A DNA stretch of 64,000 bases from positions 64,356,001-64,420,000 of the forward strand of contig OX638151.1 in assembly GCA_951804945.1 (NCBI GenBank). The letters run 5' to 3'. The translations under genes and the position numbers were made by a program. The notes under the pieces are model-generated. The model saw nothing but the letters and a program-made list of their open reading frames with translations. It did not search any database and was not told the origin of the DNA. Each line of letters starts with the position of its first letter. The stretch's first letter is position 1. The stretch comes from Podarcis cretensis (Eukaryota). Positions 27,092 through 53,018 of the stretch are shown here, one piece after another.

Positions 27092-28354
27092 GGTGGGCAG
27101 CTGTGCCCATGTTTCTGTGGCATTTTGGAACAGGGACTTTTGAGAAGCTGTTAAAAGCACCCTGTTGCAGTGCCTCAAAGTGGGAAAGGTGAAGCATTAC
27201 CCCCCCCTGGCGTGCCCCTCAGGCCAAAGGAGGAAGTTGGGCAAAGCTGTGAAAGTGAGGACAGGTTGATGCTGGGTGTGAAATAGAAAAGAAAATCAAC
27301 AAACTGAAATAGTGAGGAAGCATGGTAAACGTCTAGTCAAGAAAATGAGAGAGACTTTGTATCTGTGACAACCCATGGCACCCCCCTACCCACGACTCGC
27401 TTACAAACAAAAAACTGACTGACCAAACAAACAAACAAACCTCTTTTAGCATAGCTTATTTTATAACCCCGATTATTGCCATGTTGGGGCATGATGAGGT
27501 GATTTTGGAGGCAAGGCACCCATAGAAGGGTTGGAAAGGTCCATTGAGGGTGAGAAAGGTCCACTTCTCACCTTTAAATTGTGTCCTCCCCCCTCACCAT
27601 TTTTGGGTGGGGGTAGAGCCGGTCCACCTCCAATGCCTTGCTTGTGAAATGATTTACCTCCCAGGGTTGTTGTGAGGATACATTATATATTAAAGTGTTT
27701 TGTGCCATGAAAGGGCTTTTTTAAAAAAATAGTGAGGACAGCAGCAGTGTCATATGACATGTGATAACTTTCTTTCAAAGTACGGGATATATCCTTAGCT
27801 GTTCAGAAGATTATGGCATGCCAATATGGTGGTCATGAGGCACCTCAAACTTGGCTTCAATTAAAAGTTGAGCCATATGAGAAAAGAAGCATTTTTGTGG
27901 TTCAAATTGCAGCTTGTATCGCCATTTGGCTTTTATTTTTTATTTATTGTATTCTTTGGCTTGGGGCAAACAGAACCTACTCAATAGTTGGGGGGGGTAT
28001 ACAGGCCCAACTACAAAATACGCCATGAAGCGCACTGTAGTCAATTTTTCCTTCTTACACTCTTGAGATGCTGATTGGATTTTGTCTTGTTTAAAATGTT
28101 GTGAAAATACACACATGGGCCTTCTGCACCTGAGTGTATACTGGTATCCATTTTTGAACTAGGATAAGTACATTCCATTCAACATGCATATTTAATTATT
28201 CAGGAAAATGAATCACTAGCATGCAGGCAGAGGTTTTCCCCAGCAGAACCTGGAAAGATACAAGGACTCAGGCACCAAGCCATATTTTGTTGTTCTGCAC
28301 TATATGAGCCCCATCCTGTTCTACACACAGACATACCCACACTGAATGGAAATA

Positions 28355-28790
28355 CCGTATATACTCGTGTATAAGCCAACATTTCCAGCATTTTTTATGC
28401 TGAAAAAGCCCCCCTTGACTTATACTTGAGGGTCTCACCCAAACACATTTCCAGCGGCAGAGGCTGTTGTTGGCAGAGGAGGAGGAACGAGCAGCCCGAA
28501 AGCAGCCCTTTTGGGCTGCTTGTTCTTCCTCCGCCACTGGCGCCACCAGCCTCTGCCTCTTGGCAGCACCCTAGGTAGGCAGGGGGGGCGGAAGGGGCGA
28601 GGGGGGAGAGAAGCCCCCTCTGCCGTGTGCGCATGCATGCACCCGCACCCGCACACTAGCCCACTAGGACGTTTGTGGTGTGGTGAACCGGCTTATACTC
28701 GAGTCAGTAAGTTTTCCTAGCTTTTTTTTGGTAAAATTAGGTGCCTCGGCTTATATTATTATATTATATATTATACTCGAGTATATACGA
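28355..28790. mobile_element. Tc1/mariner (pogo/Tc2-like) MITE
   Basis: TIRs ccgtatatactcgtgtataa / ttatactcgagtatatacga; TA duplication at 28353-28354 and 28791-28792. Confidence 0.85.
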
Positions 28791-29043
28791 TAATGTTCTG
28801 AATGGTATAGAATAATTTATTTAAACAACAAGATCTAACTCAAATATCCATTGTAGAACTGGACTGTCCCAACTTGATGGGCAATTTCAAGCCTTGATAC
28901 GGTTCTACGGGTTCCCAATGTTTTGAGTTCTGGGTAGAAGGGCATCTTGTTACTTTGCAAGATCTGCTCAAATTACTTTCCTCCCAAATATGCTAAAACT
29001 CAAGTGCATTAAACAAACAGTAGGTTTTTACAAAATGGCACGC

Positions 29044-29049
29044 TTTATT
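29044..29049 (-). terminator. MYB polyadenylation signal AATAAA
   Basis: tttatt on + strand; U/GU-rich TGTTTGTTT ~25 nt downstream on the minus strand. Confidence 0.85.
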
Positions 29050-29308
29050 TATCTACAAGGCAGTAAGTACAGTGTCTTATAAAAAGTTAAGTGCAGGAAA
29101 AGCTGCACCTAATTCTATTAAGGCAGCAAATTCAGAATCCATTATAAGAAAAAGAAGCAACCTTCTCTTAGTACTGGGAAAAGTTTGATATGGCAGTCCA
29201 AAAGACATACATTTTTTTAAAAAAAAATGTTTTTGTGTATGGAATCCATATTAGGGACTATTTAGACTACACGTGAAACAAGAGTAGAAGCAGCAAGCAA
29301 GACTAGGA

Positions 29309-29316
29309 TCTCCCAA
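29309..29316 (-). promoter_or_regulatory. miR-150-5p 8mer site (UUGGGAGA)
   Basis: tctcccaa on +; MYB is an established miR-150 target. Confidence 0.8.
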
Positions 29317-29378
29317 ATAGCTGGCGTTTGCATTCTATGTTGTTGCAAACCCATGAGCACACATATAGGCACATAAAA

Positions 29379-29386
29379 TCTCCCAA
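29379..29386 (-). promoter_or_regulatory. miR-150-5p 8mer site (UUGGGAGA)
   Basis: tctcccaa on +. Confidence 0.8.
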
Positions 29387-30034
29387 GAACAGTGTTTTAA
29401 AGTATTGCTTGCAAAAAAAAAAGGGAGGGCCAGGTAGGGGGTTAAAAAGCAGTAATGTTTCCAAAGTCAGAAATGCTAGTGCATAGTTAAGTTCGCTACC
29501 CCCCCACCCCAGGTTTCTCTTTCGTTTATAAAGCTCTATGGCCTTGCCCATCTACATGGTGTAAATCTGCACCAGAAAAAAATCAACCCCCCCTGCAAAA
29601 CAAAAACCAACCAAACCAAAAATAGAACAAAACCCATTTGACATTTACAAAATTAAATTACTGGATAAAAAATATAATTTGTTCTCATAAAACTATGTTT
29701 CATACCGTAATAATTTTTTTAAAGCAAGCTAATTAAAAAACAACAACATACACACGTAAACAGTCTACAGTTCTAATGAGTGGAACAGTTCTTCAAACAG
29801 TATAGCTGTGTGACCATTGCCAGTCTGGATTGGCCCCCAGCCTACACCTTTAGATCAGCATTTGCAGTAATGCTTTTCTTGCAGTATTTCATACCGAGAC
29901 ATTTGTTCAGTGACTGATGATGCTACTGATGGAGTGCCAGCTCTTCAAAGAAAGAAGGAAACCTCAGCAAGCATCCTCACTGGTATGGGAACTCATGTGG
30001 CAACTCCTCACTGAATTAATACTGGTCCATTTGA

Positions 30035-30042
30035 TCTCCCAA
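30035..30042 (-). promoter_or_regulatory. miR-150-5p 8mer site (UUGGGAGA)
   Basis: tctcccaa on +. Confidence 0.75.
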
Positions 30043-30277
30043 AAAGTTTTTTAATATATATATAAAAAATCATTTAAAAATCACTTTTTAAAAAAGAAAG
30101 AAATCGGCATTCACATTATTAATAATTAATTGCATAAAATTCAATACCTAAGAGTTTAGGTAAGCATCATCAACAAACAGAATTATTTTCTTCCTTTTCT
30201 TTTTTTAAGTTGGGTGAGATCCAACATGAACAATATATACACATATATGCTTTTGTGACTGAATGCACTTTGTGCTG

Positions 30278-30295
30278 CTCCCAAATGTTGTACCA
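30278..30295 (-). promoter_or_regulatory. miR-150-5p 7mer-m8 site with 8-nt 3' supplementary pairing
   Basis: + strand CTCCCAA-atg-TTGTACCA equals miR-150 nt 2-8 and 12-19. Confidence 0.75.
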
Positions 30296-30406
30296 CAACA
30301 ACAACAACAACGAAAAAGGTTTTTCTCCCATGTAGAGGAACGGTAAGTCCAAATCAAATGGAAGTGTTTTGAAAAGAAAACATAATGCTTATTGGAAGAC
30401 TCTTTT

Positions 30407-30523
30407 TCACATGACCAGAGTTCGAGTCGAGAATGCGTTCATATGCTTGCGTGCAGGATCCGAGAAGCTCAGCTGATCCTCTGTCTTCCCACAAAATGCT
30501 GAATCCCATGTGTTGCTAAAATG
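30407..30523 (-). CDS. MYB: c-Myb exon 15 coding part (117 nt): HFSNTWDSAFCGKTEDQLSFSDPARKHMNAFSTRTLVM*
   Basis: Acceptor tttctag|; TGA at 30407-30409; characteristic c-Myb C-terminus. Confidence 0.96.
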   Translation of the reverse strand, partial: HFSNTWDSAFCGKTEDQLSFSDPARKHMNAFSTRTLVM

Positions 30524-32665
30524 CTAGAAACAAAAATAAAAAGGAATAATTTTTTTTAGAAACTGTGGCACAATCCAGTCCTTCCTGTAAATCTGCACCT
30601 TCCCAGGGTTGGTGTTGCAGAATTGTCCTCTGTGCTTGAGTCATCTGCAAGCGTGGCATTACAGAGGACTTAAGTCATGGGGTCTGCATACACACAATAC
30701 CTTTAAAGCACATTCAGAGTGCATATCCCCCCACAAGAAACCCAGGAACTGCAGTTTATCCTCTTACAGAGCTACAATTCTCAGGACCCTCGGGAAAGCA
30801 CCATTGCCATGATTCTTTTTTGGAGGGGTGCTTTGAAAATTTTGGTGGCTACAGTGTTAGTCTACAAATGGGTTTGACAGACTTGCCACTGGAAGCAACG
30901 TCTAGGAATGTTGTGTTGAAGCCAATCCTAGTGTTTCTGAGAGCCCCTGAGATGTAAATAGGCTTAAGAAGGGAATGAAGGAATGATGCTAAAAATATTT
31001 TCAAGCAACCCAACAGCGATAGGCCTCCGGAAGCATGTTAAAAGGGGTTTAGCTGGCAGCAAGTACCATGTCAGGAGCAGCCCACCCCAGTGGAGCAGAG
31101 CCACAGCAATAGCCTCCTGGCAGTGGCATGGCTGCTTACCAGGAGGAGAAGAGGGCGACAGTGAGGCTGGGGCTGTTTGGGTACACTAGCAGGACTGCCA
31201 GATTGGCTCCACCTGCAACCTCACTGGCCTCTCACCCAGTAAGCAGCATGGATATTGCTGTCAAGGGGTTGTTGCCTGGCTCTGCCCTACGAGGCAAGTT
31301 GCTCTTGCACGATGTAGAACCGGAGCCGACTTCCATTTGTTGCTTGCCTACAGCTTTCATAGCAATGCTGGCTATGCTGCTTAGGGCTGGTGGGAGATGA
31401 ATTCCTAGAACATCTGGAGGGCCACAAGTTCCCTAGTAGACAGTTGCTGAACTTGTGGGCTGAAAGCACGGTGACTGTGCCCAACTTGCATAGCCTAGTC
31501 CAAAGTGAGGGTTCACACAGACAGCTCTGGACTCAAGTTAATAACTAGCTTAGTTTTTTTCAGGTAACTTCAAAAATATGTCAGCACATAGCCGGAGGTA
31601 AATGTCCCACTGTGAAAGGTACTGGGGGGTGGTGATGGGAACCAGTCTGCTGAGAGAAACAAGTTTTTTAGCCATAATTTAATATCGTTTGTTTTTGTGG
31701 TATTTACAAAGATTGGAACCCCTCCTCAGTGCTGTGTTGCCCAGAGATAAACATATCTGTAACCAGGGTGGCATCTCAGTCATTTGCTTGTTCTTGAGAC
31801 AGGCAAAATGTCTTGGTGCCCCAAGCCAATAGGGCAAAAATTTCAGCACTCTATGGAATGTGTAAATACAGATATATTTTTCTTCTTCTCCACCTTGCCC
31901 CCCCCCTTTATGTACTATATTACTACCAGAACTTGCAGTTTTGATGCAGCAATGTATAAAATACCACACAACACTCAATCTCTTTCAAAATTCTAAGCAC
32001 ACTTATGTCAGATCACAATTCTCAGGTTGGTAATTTACACGATAGCAGGGAGGAAACATAGGACAAGATCTTTGTGGAAGAGGAATCGGGTGGGAAGAAC
32101 TGTTCGAAATACCGTCTCTTTGAAGAGCTTCTGTGAGCCTAAGAACATCATAAGATCCTTGCTAGACTAGGTCATCCATTTATTAATCCACCTTTTGCAT
32201 TTCCACGTGATACACACTTTGGTATTCAAGCAGTTCATTGAAGTCAGACACAGGGCACCCTGTTTATTTTGCTTTCTCTGCAACATGGGCCTCTGTCTCT
32301 TCAAACCGCAGCCAAGGGCAGGTGTGACATACTTTTCACATTGCAGATATGCCACCACACTGCTGCTGTTTCCTCTGCTATGATTTCAGTGAACAATCTC
32401 CACCCCTTTGGGGAACTTGGCATGCCTTGGCTAATTTCAGTCTTTGTTGTAAGCTCAACAACTCAGATCCACTCAGGGGAGAAAGCAACCACTGCTGGAA
32501 TGATGGAGGTATTTTTGTAAAACAGTACATAGGCAAAAATGGATCTTACTGCTGAAGGGTGTCTAGGTTAGGCATGGGGATATCTGAATCGCTTAAGCTC
32601 TGTGGAAGGGAATGACAACATTTGCCTTACACTATGGGTTCTTTGCAACTCTTTAATTTTTCTCT

Positions 32666-36963: not shown

Positions 36964-37071
36964 CTGAAGTGGGCTAATTGATGACCTATTTCTATGTAAT
37001 GCAAATAATTTATGAGTACTGTCCTCTTCTTCTGATGCAGGCATCTTTAAACCAGAACTGGTAAGTAGATT
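36964..37071 (-). CDS. MYB: c-Myb exon 14 (108 nt): NLLTSSGLKMPASEEEDSTHKLFALHRNRSSISPLQ
   Basis: Acceptor ttcatcag| and donor |gtaaaa; overlaps ORF 36847..37044. Confidence 0.93.
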
Positions 37072-42280: not shown

Positions 42281-43000
42281 TAAAAGTTGCACAGAGCTTT
42301 TCAAAATTACTATTTTGATGTAAATATTTAATTTGCTGAAAAAGGGCTGTTACTGACTGCAGAATTTAGGAAATAAACTTAATTAGCAGTAATGACTGTC
42401 ATTAACTCAACATGTTGTTGTTTCAAACTCTACATGTTTAAGCAGAAGTCCACAAGCCACTTAAACCAATTCACATACTCTTAATCTGTTTAGCCCATTC
42501 AATGAGATGCATATACCTTAAATATATCAAGTAGTTTGTAGCTCACACCTTACTGTTCAAAAATGTTTTCAAATCATTTATTTTAAATCACTTGTTAGTT
42601 TGCAACATAATTTGGACACCATTGTCTGTTTAGTGTAAATTTAGGGAGTCAGTGAACTCAAATGTGCAAAGTATGGGGTAAGAAAAAATGGTTACAGGAA
42701 ACAGAAATGTTAAATTCTGATAGCTGAAGGAATGACAAGCAAGAGCAAAGCAAACAAACCGCTAACCCCTTGAAAACCACCAAGAATAAGACACACAAGA
42801 GAAAAGCAAATTTATCAGTTAGATTGTTGGCAGTCTAAACTCCATGGTGAAGAGTAAGCTATGAGTAAATTCAAAATTGGAGAGCAATCAGTGAGTGCAA
42901 CAGGAATTAGTCATTCTTTCCAATGATTAGTTCTCCTATGTTGTTAACACCTTGCTGACTTTTGAGGATTAGTAAAATCTGTGCAGAAATCTTGCTCTAC

Positions 43001-43360
43001 CTGCGAGGGAGAGAATGGCAGGCTTTTGACAGGGGAGCGCTTAGGAGTTGAGCTCCTGACATCAGCAAGTATGAAGGACTTATGGCCACTGGCTAAGTGG
43101 CTGGGATGCCCTCTCTTTGTGCGCAGAAACACCAACGGAGCTGTGCCACATTTTGAGCCAGCCAAGGACTTGGGCAAGGCAAGGGAATCCTGACTCAACA
43201 TGGCTTTGCTCAGGTTTGAGAGAGGGTGTCCTTCAGGCCTACATGCACTGGCCTCTGTTTGCTGAAGCTGTGGGGCTTTGGCAGAGGGAGCTCGGCTAGG
43301 CGAGGTGTCTGCTTCTTCAGAGAATTCAAAACTGCTGAGATCACCCCATGATGAAGGATC
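43001..43360 (-). CDS. MYB: c-Myb alternative in-frame exon 9B (360 nt, p89-type isoform): DPSSWGDLSSFEFSEEADTSPS...SSTPKRSPVKSLPFSPSQ
   Basis: Acceptor gtttttag| and donor |gtagag; 120 open codons, phase 0/0; the termini match the known c-Myb long-isoform insert. Confidence 0.93.
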
Positions 43361-44681: not shown

Positions 44682-46446
44682 CTAAAGGAAGGGGGGGCGG
44701 TAAAGAGGGTGCGAGAAAAAAGAGGCAGAAGGAACTTAGCAAAGAAATTGCACAAGGTATCGGATGGCTGTTGAAGGGAAAGATAAAAGTAGTTGCATCA
44801 TCTAAGCATTTAATGCCCATGAAACAGTTGTCAAGATGTTTCCTTTCATCCGTGCAGCAAGAGCTTGTTTGAAAGAGTAATAAATTTATAGCTTTCATTT
44901 TGGCATTACCTCATCTTGTGCAACAACTCTGCATCCTGGGCCAGTATCTACAGTATAACAAGCAATACAGCTACATGCATACACTCTTCTTCCAAAGTCT
45001 GTGAGTGCACAAATCTGTTTTTCCTTCCCTGTGCAAAGTAAGGAAATTGCAAGATTCCCCTAGTGCAAAACTCAGTCTTATCTGACCTTATGGATTTAGA
45101 TTTTGAATTCCACATCACGTTTGAAGTCACTGGCAACTTTTCCATTGGTCTTTGCGGATTTAGATTAATACCAGTTACTTATTTTTAATATACCTCCCCT
45201 CATCTTTGCCCTATCTCTGACTAGCGCTACAGCTTACACCAATGCAATGAAAAGGCTGTAAAATCAACGCGGTTAGGAAAGCAGAAGAGCAAATTAACAG
45301 AAGTCTCTTTGCAGCATAACCATGCAAGAGAAGGCATTGCAAAACTTCAACTAAAAATTAGAAGTGGCCAAACTAACATTTCATGCACACGGTTGTGTCC
45401 CCCCCCCATTAACTAGAAAATGAATTAATTATTAATATGAATTAATTAGACATGGATGTTTCCTGCTGGCTATCACCCAGGTTTTTATTTTTTCTGCAGT
45501 TACCGTATTAATTTTATTACATATACAAATTCAGTAATAGCCAGCTCTGGGTTTCATACATGCAGTTATAGAATCTAACTTTCCTCGAAGAAACATTACC
45601 AAACATGCATAAAAACAAATAAAATGGACCTTATTTGGGCTGTGATTCCCAAACCATTTGGTCTGGAGCAATAGTCCTGTCTCCCCAACGCCAATTCAAG
45701 ACTATGTATTCCCAACTTGCAGGGCATGTGGCACAAGTGGCCCCGGGAGGAGGATTCTGTGGCATTCTGGAACGGAGGAGACAGGCCCAGTGGTGTGGCC
45801 AGTGCAGAGAGACACACCCTGCTTGCCCCCTTCCATGCAGCGTTGCTCACTGACTTTGCAAGCTGGAGGGGAAGCCACTTCAAGCTTTGGGGCAGGGGTG
45901 AGGTTCTGAATACATACAAGTAGCACTCTTTAGAGCAGAGGTATGTGACGTACTCTGGACTTGACTTGTGCCACATTTGCCGAAAAGAGTGAGCAAGACC
46001 GCCTGCAATGGCTTGAGGATCACAGGCCAGGAGTGCAACATATAACTGAAGGTGAGGATACAGCGCAGAGAGAAAGAGAAGAAAACCAAGAACCAGGCAC
46101 TACATTTTCATTAGGCACAGTGTTCAGAAGTTCTCAGAAACAAAGATGTCCCCTCAGGATAAAACCTGACGGGAACTGATTGTTGCTGTTCTTTTTTAAA
46201 TAGCAGTCCATTTACACATAAAAGCAAACATGGTGGAATTAGTGCACCACGGTAATTTGGAGATGGGGGGGGGGAAGAGAAGCAAATGCTTATGGGGGGT
46301 GGAGAGCAATGTCTCGTCCTCTTCAAATGGAAACATAGAGCCTTGATTAGTGTCAGAAGAAGAGGGGGAGGGAAAAGGGGGGGGGGAAGAGAAGCACTGG
46401 GGTAAAGCTGCTATCCCTCCGTCCAAGCACACAGTGACATTCTTAC

Positions 46447-46551
46447 TGGTAATGCCTGTTGCCCTTTCAGTTCATTCTCAGTCGACATTAGTAGCAACTC
46501 TAATTCCTTTATTCGTTTTTCTTTCTCAGGGTCTTCATCATTATAGTGTCT
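46447..46551 (-). CDS. MYB: c-Myb exon 8 (105 nt), transactivation domain: RHYNDEDPEKEKRIKELELLLMSTENELKGQQALP
   Basis: Acceptor ttgcag| and donor |gtaaga; LxxLL CBP/p300 KIX-binding helix. Confidence 0.97.
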
Positions 46552-47394
46552 CTGCAATTAAGAGTTAAGGGAAAAGAGAAGGTAAAGGCCGGGTTGGATG
46601 CTGCAGTTTACGACGATGACAATGGCTTGCGGCCTTGCAGAATTGCAGGCAAATTAGCCTGAGAGGCTCCTCCACTGGACAAAAAAACCCGGAATCTCTG
46701 CTTAATTTTATTTTTTTGCACAGGTATTAAAATGCAGAACACAATACCTATTTTCTGGATGCCTCCTGCGTACCAAACTAGGAAACCTAAAAAACCATTC
46801 CAGATCACTTTCCCTGGCCACCTTTTTAAAGAAATGAGTAGACCTCCTCACCCTGATACAACTTCTTTCTGCCAGTGTGCAAACAAAAGCACTGGGTAGC
46901 CGCTGTGGTAAGCAAACTGGAAGCCTTTCTTAGGAACGTGTGCCCTTACTTCCTTTCCTGGAGCAATTGATACCCTCTCCTCCTAAACTGCAAGTTCACC
47001 TTCAGCAAAGTTGACTCTGGTGAAAGCTAACCAGGGGTTACTCTAAAACCAGGATTTGAAATCCACGCCAATCTGTGGCCTTCAGATTTTTAGAAAGGGA
47101 AACCCATGTTTAGCCCTAAGCTGAAAACCATGATGACAATCTGCTCAGTCACCAAGGTGGGGGAGAATTTGCTCCAGGAAGCGAAGGAGCTGTGAGGAGA
47201 GTGTGTGTCTTCTCAAGGCTGGCACCCAAATTGCTGGAAACATGGCTGCCCAGGCCCTTCTCTATCATTTACTTTGTTAAAAGAGCTGTGCCTTTGTCTG
47301 ATTTTATTTTTTGGCAGGTTAAGGTATTTGCATGTAACTTGCATATGAAATGTATGGCAAATGGACCCCTGAAATGGTTTTTAAATTTATCTAC

Positions 47395-51517: not shown

Positions 51518-51962
51518 TATACAATTCATACTATGGTAGAAATGAGTCGAACACATATTTCCTTCCGTCTTTGTAACATATGAAGACGTCGTAACATTAT
51601 CAGGCAAGGTCTTCTGTGTCACTGGAGATCCACACAGCCTTAAAACATCTGAGATGTTATTTTACAGATGACCCCCAATAGCTTCCTGCGACTGCCTGTT
51701 CTATTGACCAGATACAATTTAGAAAACTTCCCCTACAATTAAAGCAAATAGTTGGTTGCTGTAGCTTTGTATTAACTTATAAAATAATGTACAACACTTT
51801 GATCTCATCAGCTTGGCCATGCACTCACCTACATTCATTAGGAGCAAAATTCATTAGGAGCATTGCATTTGTTCTGCTAAGACGACAAAATACAGAGTTT
51901 CATCCACTCATCTCCCATCTCCACCCCAGTCTTTCCTTTAAAGTGCTACTCTCTGTCATTAC

Positions 51963-52183
51963 CGTCCAGGAAGCAACTTTGCAATTTCTGCCCATCTGTT
52001 TCCCAGTCTCTTGTGTGCTTGGTAAATAATTCTATCTTCTTCCTCTGTCCAGGAGGTTTTTTTAACTTCTGGATTCAAATGGTTGTGCCATCGCTCTCTG
52101 CATTGTTTCCCGATCCTTCCTTTCAAGTGCTTAGCGATGACAGACCAGCGCTTGGGACCGTATTTCTGCACCAGCTCTATCAC
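51963..52183 (-). CDS. MYB: c-Myb exon 5 (221 nt): VIELVQKYGPKRWSVIAKHLKGRIGKQCRERWHNHLNPEVKKTSWTEEEDRIIYQAHKRLGNRWAEIAKLLPG(R)
   Basis: ORF 51959..52189; acceptor tttgcag| and donor |gtaatg; canonical R2R3 repeats. Confidence 0.99.
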
Positions 52184-53018
52184 CTGCAAACAAGCACAAA
52201 AACAAGTAAAGTGCCACCTCTAACTTTCAGGTGTTATGCTATGGGACCAAAACGCAACCATTCTCTTATGTTTCATGGAAGATCAGGGCTGTGATGTGCA
52301 TCAGGAATTTAGATAGGCCAGCATTATTATACAGGAAGAAAAATGGGAATAAAAACAGGTGCAAAACTTATCAGGGACTAAAGAAGGCAGCTGAGTAGGA
52401 AAAGGCGGCATCCTATTAATTGTCTTGCCATTATAGCTGCCTCATGACATTTCCAGACTATCACAAATTTTGGGTGAGATTCTTGCACAACAAATCCACT
52501 CCCCCACAAAAATCCTCCCAGACTTTTGTGATAAGGAAAGTAAAGGGGGAAAACACAGTGGACACAACATACAATGTTCCCACAGATTAGAATTAGTTAT
52601 CAATCAATATTCCACATAATCGAACCTCCCCACAAACTTTGTGCAAACAAAACAGGATGCCTGGAATCACCTCTTGTATAATTATTCCCAAAGTATTCCC
52701 CAAAGATGGGAGGGAGGATTTGGGCTCAAAAACATGAGGCTTGCCTAAGGCCATCTAATGAGATAATAACTGAGACTCGAGTCAAGGACTTCCTGGTTCG
52801 CAGCTCAGTCTCTCAGCCATTCTGTATTACACCACCTCTCAAGTGGACAGTTAAGCAATTATTTAAAGTGCTGCTGGAAGAAATGTTAGGGGCTGTAAAG
52901 ATCAATTATTAAATAACTTAAATTACAGGTATTATTTCATCAAAGTGGATGTAGGTTGGCTGCACCCAACGTTTAATGCTGATGGAACGATTAGATTAAA
53001 ATAATATTGTTAACTTAC

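Follow-up and report, generated by a model that had tools for sequence, protein, structure and literature searches.

Among the miR-150 sites in the MYB 3' untranslated region (UTR) in Podarcis cretensis, one joins a seed match to a long stretch of pairing with the 3' half of the microRNA. This raises the question of whether such a site serves to silence MYB, to eliminate miR-150, or to accommodate some other factor that recognises the same bases. The site lies in the window analysed here, by which we mean the whole stretch of 64,000 nucleotides. An initial annotation, made from the letters alone, had likened its layout to that of the triggers of ZSWIM8-dependent target-directed miRNA degradation (TDMD) and had proposed a mutual-antagonism switch between MYB mRNA and miR-150. 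In this study, we established the host gene, the microRNA, the pairing and its conservation, and weighed them against published functional data. Following the nomenclature of the chicken gene (PMC2940766), the site is called s2.

The host gene and its transcript

The placement of the site in a MYB 3'UTR was borne out by the protein matches of two exons, which identify the gene as c-MYB on the minus strand. The R2R3 DNA-binding exon (51962..52219, minus strand) agrees with c-Myb at 72 of 73 residues (PDB 1h88), a match to B-Myb scoring below that to c-Myb, and the transactivation-domain exon (46414..46557, minus strand) is identical to a c-Myb peptide at 32 of 32 residues (PDB 6dmx). The coding part of the last exon (30407..30523, minus strand) ends in ...TRTLVM, with an acceptor AG at 30524-30525 and the stop codon at 30407-30409. 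Three Cmyb_C loci are present in the genome, and the C-termini of the two others, on C6 and C7, are presumably those of B-Myb and A-Myb. Between the core MYB exons, a 138-codon open stretch at 42947-43360 (minus strand) was also observed; it looks like the alternative exon that is included in the long isoform of c-Myb.

The 3'UTR covers about 1.37 kb (29037..30406, minus strand), with an AAUAAA at 29049-29044 and RNA contigs ending at 29037-29038. Contigs of close relatives exit at 30525, and the sequence with which they continue belongs to the upstream exon, where it maps at 36966. No listed data set is registered as RNA, and these contigs were counted as RNA because they are spliced. MYB is transcribed through s2: in three of the four RNA-type contig runs (X1, X5 and X6, from close relatives) contigs span the coding exon through the site, and in run X10 the contig breaks at the CAA repeat adjoining it. 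The stranded X21 reads in the UTR are few and have their first mates on the plus strand, as expected for minus-strand RNA, and among the raw RNA reads of X19 and X21, at shallow depth, there were none over s2 and no poly(A) pile-up. Just beyond the MYB 3' end, a multi-copy repeat at 28300-28810 draws foreign reads in all four runs. An Rfam scan of the 64-kb window returned 0 matches.

Pairing of miR-150 with s2

The miR-150 gene is the single Rfam RF00767 match above cut-off in the genome (66.3 bits, the cut-off being 55), at G000:C13:19644358-19644441 on the minus strand. The locus folds as a hairpin whose 5p arm bears both the seed and the block of nucleotides (nt) 12-19. The initial annotation had worked from a mammalian miR-150 and had called for the sequence of this species; the 5p 22-mer of the genome is the same as human miR-150 (PMC2940766 suppl. 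3), its exact 5' end being assigned by homology to the human microRNA.

Re-reading of the plus strand at 30277-30298 gave the same letters as first reported, and a pair map of the genome's miR-150-5p against the minus-strand mRNA reproduced the claimed Watson-Crick pairing of nt 2-8 and 12-19. On the minus strand, and with the microRNA taken from the genome, s2 consists of a 7mer-m8 seed match to miR-150-5p (30278..30284), three unpaired bases opposite nt 9-11 at offset 0 (30285..30287), and an 8-bp match to nt 12-19 (30288..30295), a 3'-supplementary pairing of -10.5 kcal/mol. Nucleotides 1, 9-11, 20 and 21 of miR-150 are unpaired and nt 22 forms an isolated G:U; pairing thus stops at nt 19, as had been noted, and the last three bases of the microRNA form no helix on s2. 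Target position 1 (30277) is a C, which makes the seed match a 7mer-m8 and not an 8mer. The full duplex has an energy of -21.5 kcal/mol. Located 109-130 nt past the MYB stop codon, in a transcribed 3'UTR, with nt 2-8 matched and nt 13-16 paired, s2 has the pairing and placement of a canonical 3'-supplementary site. The predicted cost of opening it is 8.3 kcal/mol, because a (GUU)5 run upstream (30296..30310, minus strand) is predicted to fold back onto s2 in a weak hairpin; a 6-bp stem (a GUUGU/ACAAC stem-loop) at s2 is predicted to fold at -4.5 kcal/mol.

The 3' pairing of s2 is not a chance occurrence in this UTR. When 200,000 random flanks from the window were set before a seed match and any offset from -3 to +8 was allowed, 214 (0.1%) gave at least 8 contiguous pairs to nt 10-22, and over the five seed sites of the UTR the chance of such pairing is about 0.5%. 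In the 1.51-Gb genome as a whole, the exact s2 pattern has three matches, as against three for the reversed control, and these are the MYB site, the miR-150 gene and one chance match at a LINE-like edge. Over the whole genome, the pattern is thus no more frequent than by chance, and it is the location in the MYB UTR that is significant.

The chance match (G000:C3:99999990-100000007, minus strand) has a miR-150 8mer, a position-9 pair and an 8-bp 3' helix at -26.8 kcal/mol; it pairs better than s2 of MYB, and 19 nt of it are identical to the chicken s2 core. Since a chance match can outpair s2, s2-like geometry alone is weak evidence. A piece derived from MYB was considered here and rejected, as the similarity to the MYB UTR does not extend beyond the motif. 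The match sits at the end of a repeat fragment that is riddled with stop codons, presumably a LINE by its translated motif, and that resembles 41 other places in the genome. Among the 19 repeat copies examined, the 3' 8-mer occurs in two and the seed in none, and one aligns across the motif; a second miR-150 target at this place was also rejected, the match being a chance one at a degraded repeat edge whose other copies have no seed. Long ORFs were observed nearby at G000:C3:99979093-99983239 and C3:100009247-100013094, presumably gag-pol of Gypsy-type and Copia-type retrotransposons, which they resemble.

Other elements of the MYB 3'UTR

Of the five miR-150 seed sites in the MYB 3'UTR, s2 alone has more than three contiguous 3' pairs. 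Site s1, a 7mer-A1 without long 3' pairing (30324..30330, minus strand), matches s1 of PMC2940766; the 8mer s3 (29379..29386, minus strand) has flanks that match chicken s3, and the 8mer at 29309..29316 (minus strand) corresponds to s4 of PMC2940766. The additional, fifth site is an 8mer predicted to be poorly accessible (30035..30042, minus strand), which has no counterpart among the four chicken MYB sites of PMC2940766. Relatives carry indels beside it, at 30046-30063. Directly next to the same 8mer is an AUUAAA (30055-30050) that could be a proximal poly(A) signal; transcripts ending there would retain s1 and s2 but not s3 and s4. Sites of the 7mer-m8 or 8mer type number four in the 1.37-kb UTR as against 19 in the window's 128,000 strand-bases, and the 3 kb past the stops of the two MYB paralogues contain 0 and 1.

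The Pumilio-element motif that had been reported near s2 is present (30234..30241, minus strand), at a distance of 35 nt 3' of the site. Motifs of this kind number 19 over both strands of the window (128,000 strand-bases), with about 0.2 expected in a UTR of this length. Three near-relative runs list no substitution in it, which is uninformative at 95-99% identity, the chicken primer sequence stops short of it, and a literature search gave no MYB-Pumilio paper among the matches listed. Cooperation of Pumilio with s2 was set aside as unsupported.

The 3' half of s2 also overlaps a 7mer-A1 that matches the miR-140 3p arm (30291..30297, minus strand), the sole such match in the UTR. The 5' end of mature miR-140-3p used here is the one that we take to be correct. 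In the nine species compared below, the match (target positions 15-21) is present in eight, mammals included, and is absent in zebrafish.

Conservation of s2

Four miR-150 sites, s1-s4, have been named in the chicken MYB UTR, with s2 at 123-142 nt past the stop codon (PMC2940766). By its sequence and its similar distance from the stop codon (109-130 nt), and with s1 just upstream, the site in the window is the orthologue of this vertebrate s2. Both s2 and its 3' pairing were already published in 2010, and the present species is a further example.

Conservation was counted by eye over nine species, namely the eight of PMC2940766 suppl. 3 and the window. Target positions 13-19 are invariant in all nine and position 12 in eight, and the seed is intact in five of five non-mammals and broken at position 5 in four of four mammals. 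The comparison of vertebrate MYB UTRs that the initial annotation had called for thus upholds the conservation of the 3' 8-mer and its spacing, but not that of the seed, which was lost in mammals. Nor is the 3-nt loop a conserved feature, as it measures 2 nt in frog and medaka, 3 nt in chicken and the window, and 4 nt in zebrafish. Position 1 is a C here and in mammals and an A in the other four species; position 9 is paired in chicken, frog and medaka and unpaired here; and position 20 is a non-pairing G in nine of nine species, pairing never reaching nt 20. Within target positions 1-22, s2 of the window equals that of chicken except at two positions.

Degradation triggers and mouse ZSWIM8 data

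Twelve of the 13 validated TDMD triggers have at least six contiguous 3' pairs, often starting from nt 12 or 13, and the set has loops of 3-11 nt and 3' energies from -9.6 to -17.1 kcal/mol with a median of -13.5 (PMC10899785). With 8 bp, a 3-nt loop and -10.5 kcal/mol (calculated with ViennaRNA, the published range being from RNAstructure), s2 falls within these limits, at the weak end. It has the seed, the UTR location, the loop and the 6 bp of the first four filters of PMC12863257, and the conservation of the fifth holds outside mammals only. According to a recent preprint, a trigger of low abundance exists (Lpar4), a trigger score rewards pairing of the penultimate bases, and mutation of the Plagl1 and Lrrc58 trigger sites leaves the levels of their host mRNAs unchanged (bioRxiv 10.1101/2025.11.06.686990); such non-repression of the host mRNA is a reported tendency, not a strict rule.

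In Zswim8-null mice, the log2 fold change of miR-150-5p is negative in eight of eight tissues (from -0.22 in liver to -1.00 in stomach), the FDR being below 0.05 for lung and for kidney, whereas that of miR-7a-5p lies between +1.9 and +4.3 in all eight (PMC10499020). In the same data, the tailed fraction of miR-150-5p is 0.2-1.2% and is not raised in the knockout in any of the six tissues listed. In a second set (PMC10620050), the knockout column of which was inferred from the miR-7a and miR-322 rows, miR-150-5p is reduced in 11 of the 12 tissues, intestine being the one in which it stays level, and it appears only in the sheet of all miRNAs, not among the sensitive ones. miR-150 is therefore no general ZSWIM8 substrate in mouse. 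These data are silent on an intact s2, because the mouse seed has its mismatch at position 5 and whole embryonic organs dilute progenitors, so that an effect confined to MYB-high ones may be masked. The consistent fall of miR-150-5p is an observation of its own, which perhaps reflects fewer or less mature lymphoid cells, or normalisation.

MYB is named in nine places of the TDMDfinder tables, of which the only pair row concerns miR-424-5p and none miR-150; the lack of a miR-150 row is expected because the mammalian s2 seed is broken. The main text of CLASHub mentions neither zebrafish nor chicken, neither miR-150 nor MYB. Among the matches listed in a search of open-access papers, there was no paper linking miR-150 to ZSWIM8 or TDMD, and the matches listed likewise contained no zebrafish zswim8 small-RNA study and no ZSWIM8 data from non-mammalian vertebrates.

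Discussion

Taken together, the evidence makes it likely that the conserved s2 is an ordinary but unusually tight silencing site, which lowers MYB output rather than destroying miR-150. In such a mechanism, Argonaute loaded with miR-150 would first engage s2, at 109-130 nt past the stop codon, through its 7mer-m8 seed match; slicing would be prevented by the three unpaired central bases, and dissociation would be slowed by the 8-bp 3' helix, in zero-offset register from nt 12. The longer dwell would render s2 dominant among the five sites, and through it MYB mRNA would be deadenylated and translationally repressed while miR-150 levels increase during blood-cell maturation. A high-affinity binding mode with pairing from nt 12 at offset 0 has been described (McGeary et al. 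2022, PMC8940178).

Functional evidence comes from the chicken UTR, in which mutation of s2 alone abolished the repression of a reporter by miR-150 in chicken DF-1 and human 293FT cells, whereas mutation of s1, s3 or s4 did not (PMC2940766). The authors credited the dominance of s2 to its 7-nt 3' pairing, in an assay in which the miRNA was over-expressed and the mutations lay on the seed side only (PMC2940766). By analogy with this orthologue, s2 likely has the same function in the present species; the 3' helix as such probably contributes to it, and TDMD is probably absent. On the other hand, s2 may be weaker here than in chicken, with the three 8mers taking over, because it has no A at position 1, no pair at position 9 and an opening cost of 8.3 kcal/mol.

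The zebrafish result on MYB s2 reportedly goes back to Lin et al. in 2008, as cited in PMC2940766. There, the same site is stated at second hand to be functional in zebrafish, and the mammalian s2 is described as carrying two mutations, with s3 and s4 used instead and with its 3' end conserved from frogs to humans (PMC2940766). In mouse, s2 is reported to be non-functional and s3 and s4 to act together (PMC2940766).

As mammals retain the 3' half of a site that is reportedly non-functional in mouse, repression by miR-150 alone does not explain its conservation. It is conceivable, although rather unlikely, that the seed is a working miR-150 site while the 3' half is kept mainly for an overlapping miR-140-3p match, a stem-loop or a U/G-rich protein element. 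Mammals do retain this block beside a broken seed, and positions that do not pair with miR-150 are, by eye, equally conserved (t10 and t20 in nine of nine species, t11 and t21 in eight of nine). Positions 15-21 match the genome's own miR-140 3p arm in eight of the nine species, and for the human MYB 3'UTR repression by miR-140-3p has been reported, the position of its site not being given here (PMC6224204). The 6-bp stem predicted at -4.5 kcal/mol and the binding of RBM38 to U/G-rich sequence at other, mammalian miR-150 sites of MYB (PMC3221330) point the same way. However, a given 7-mer has a chance of about 8% of occurring in a UTR of this length, a single other miRNA having been checked, and in chicken the 3'-paired s2 works whereas the perfect 8mer s4 does not (PMC2940766). 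Moreover, zebrafish lacks both the miR-140 match and the stem and nevertheless keeps the miR-150-pairing positions 13-19 at offset 0; as it keeps only the bases that pair with miR-150, its sequence argues for pairing with miR-150 as the older constraint on the 3' half. The overlapping miR-140-3p match could explain why mammals retain the 3' half in a site that is reportedly non-functional in mouse. Residual 3'-compensatory binding of miR-150 in mammals is possible too, and no paper on such binding at s2 was found among the matches listed.

Alternatively, MYB mRNA of non-mammalian vertebrates could be a TDMD trigger, in which s2 frees the 3' end of miR-150 from Argonaute and recruits ZSWIM8, a proposal that we regard as very unlikely. 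The same low credence attaches to its physiological extension, by which the clearance of miR-150 in MYB-high progenitors would give a double-negative switch, lost in mammals when the seed mutated. Equally improbable is an ancestral TDMD-based switch in blood-cell differentiation of fish, amphibians, reptiles and birds, in which s2 would make MYB mRNA both a target of miR-150 and the agent of its destruction, mammals having disabled it by one seed mutation while repression moved to s3 and s4. If this held, the mRNA of a transcription factor would do away with its own chief repressor during blood development, and mammals would have lost the loop. In geometry, s2 does resemble a trigger: its seed, UTR location, loop size and 6 bp satisfy the published filters, its 3' energy lies within the validated range, pairing starts from nt 12, which many triggers also do, and conservation of the 3' half extends from fish to amniotes. 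MYB and miR-150 are also oppositely expressed, although plain repression predicts this equally well, and the mouse knockouts cannot probe an intact site. Nevertheless, the chicken orthologue represses its host, unlike the Plagl1 and Lrrc58 sites; the last three bases of miR-150 form no helix and position 20 is a non-pairing G in nine of nine species; the 3' energy is at the weak end and the seed match is a 7mer-m8 instead of the usual 8mer; the MYB mRNA has a short lifetime and is not present in differentiated cells; and miR-150-5p shows no sensitivity to ZSWIM8 in mouse. The trigger-like layout proposed by the initial annotation is thus sound as geometry, but neither degradation nor sequestration of miR-150 is supported by the repression seen in chicken and the mouse ZSWIM8 data. 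Its mutual-antagonism switch is likewise not supported, given an orthologue that represses and a miR-150-5p that is insensitive to ZSWIM8 in two mouse knockout sets. That MYB mRNA acts as a sponge, which sequesters miR-150 without degrading it, is hardly credible: five seed sites, one of them of high affinity, would suit such a role, but the mRNA has a short lifetime and disappears while miR-150 increases. A single transcription-factor mRNA also makes up a small share of the target pool of a miRNA.

In the zero-offset 3'-supplementary sites of PMC8940178, as in s2, a canonical seed is combined with pairing from nt 12 that covers nt 13-16; miR-150 is not among the miRNAs named in the abstract and the first part of the Discussion of that paper. 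The 3' helix of s2 is long for this class, with 8 bp as compared with the usual 3-5 bp of supplementary pairing (PMC10899785). The triggers used for comparison (Cyrano for miR-7, Nrep for miR-29, Plagl1 for miR-322, Lrrc58 for miR-503, and Atp6v1g1 and Lpar4 for miR-335-3p) share with s2 the seed, a short central loop, at least six contiguous 3' pairs and a non-coding location. However, loss of ZSWIM8 raises their miRNAs but not, in mouse, miR-150; and chicken s2 represses MYB, in contrast to the Plagl1 and Lrrc58 sites, which leave their hosts unrepressed.

Mammalian s2 (human, mouse, cow and pig) has the same 3' half and downstream context as the site described here, but its seed match is broken at position 5. 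Because the intact seed of the present species sits in a mammal-like downstream context, the comparison suggests that mammals broke the s2 seed through a single change at position 5. This intact seed in a mammal-like context is one addition made by the present species, the others being a UTR in which the four known sites are intact and joined by a fifth, and the overlap with miR-140-3p.

Among the closest known systems is s2 of the chicken and zebrafish MYB UTRs, which is alike in gene, position near the stop codon, sequence, combination of seed and 3' pairing, and neighbours s1, s3 and s4 (Guillon-Munos et al. 2010, PMC2940766). The seed match is a 7mer-m8 here, with C1 as in mammals and position 9 unpaired, as compared with a 9-mer-A1 in chicken, and the 3' pairing extends over 8 bp as compared with 7, because miR-150 of this species has U12, like that of human. 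Relative to the chicken UTR, that of the present species has a fifth 8mer, an s3 that is a full 8mer as in mammals, and a (GUU)5 run upstream of s2.
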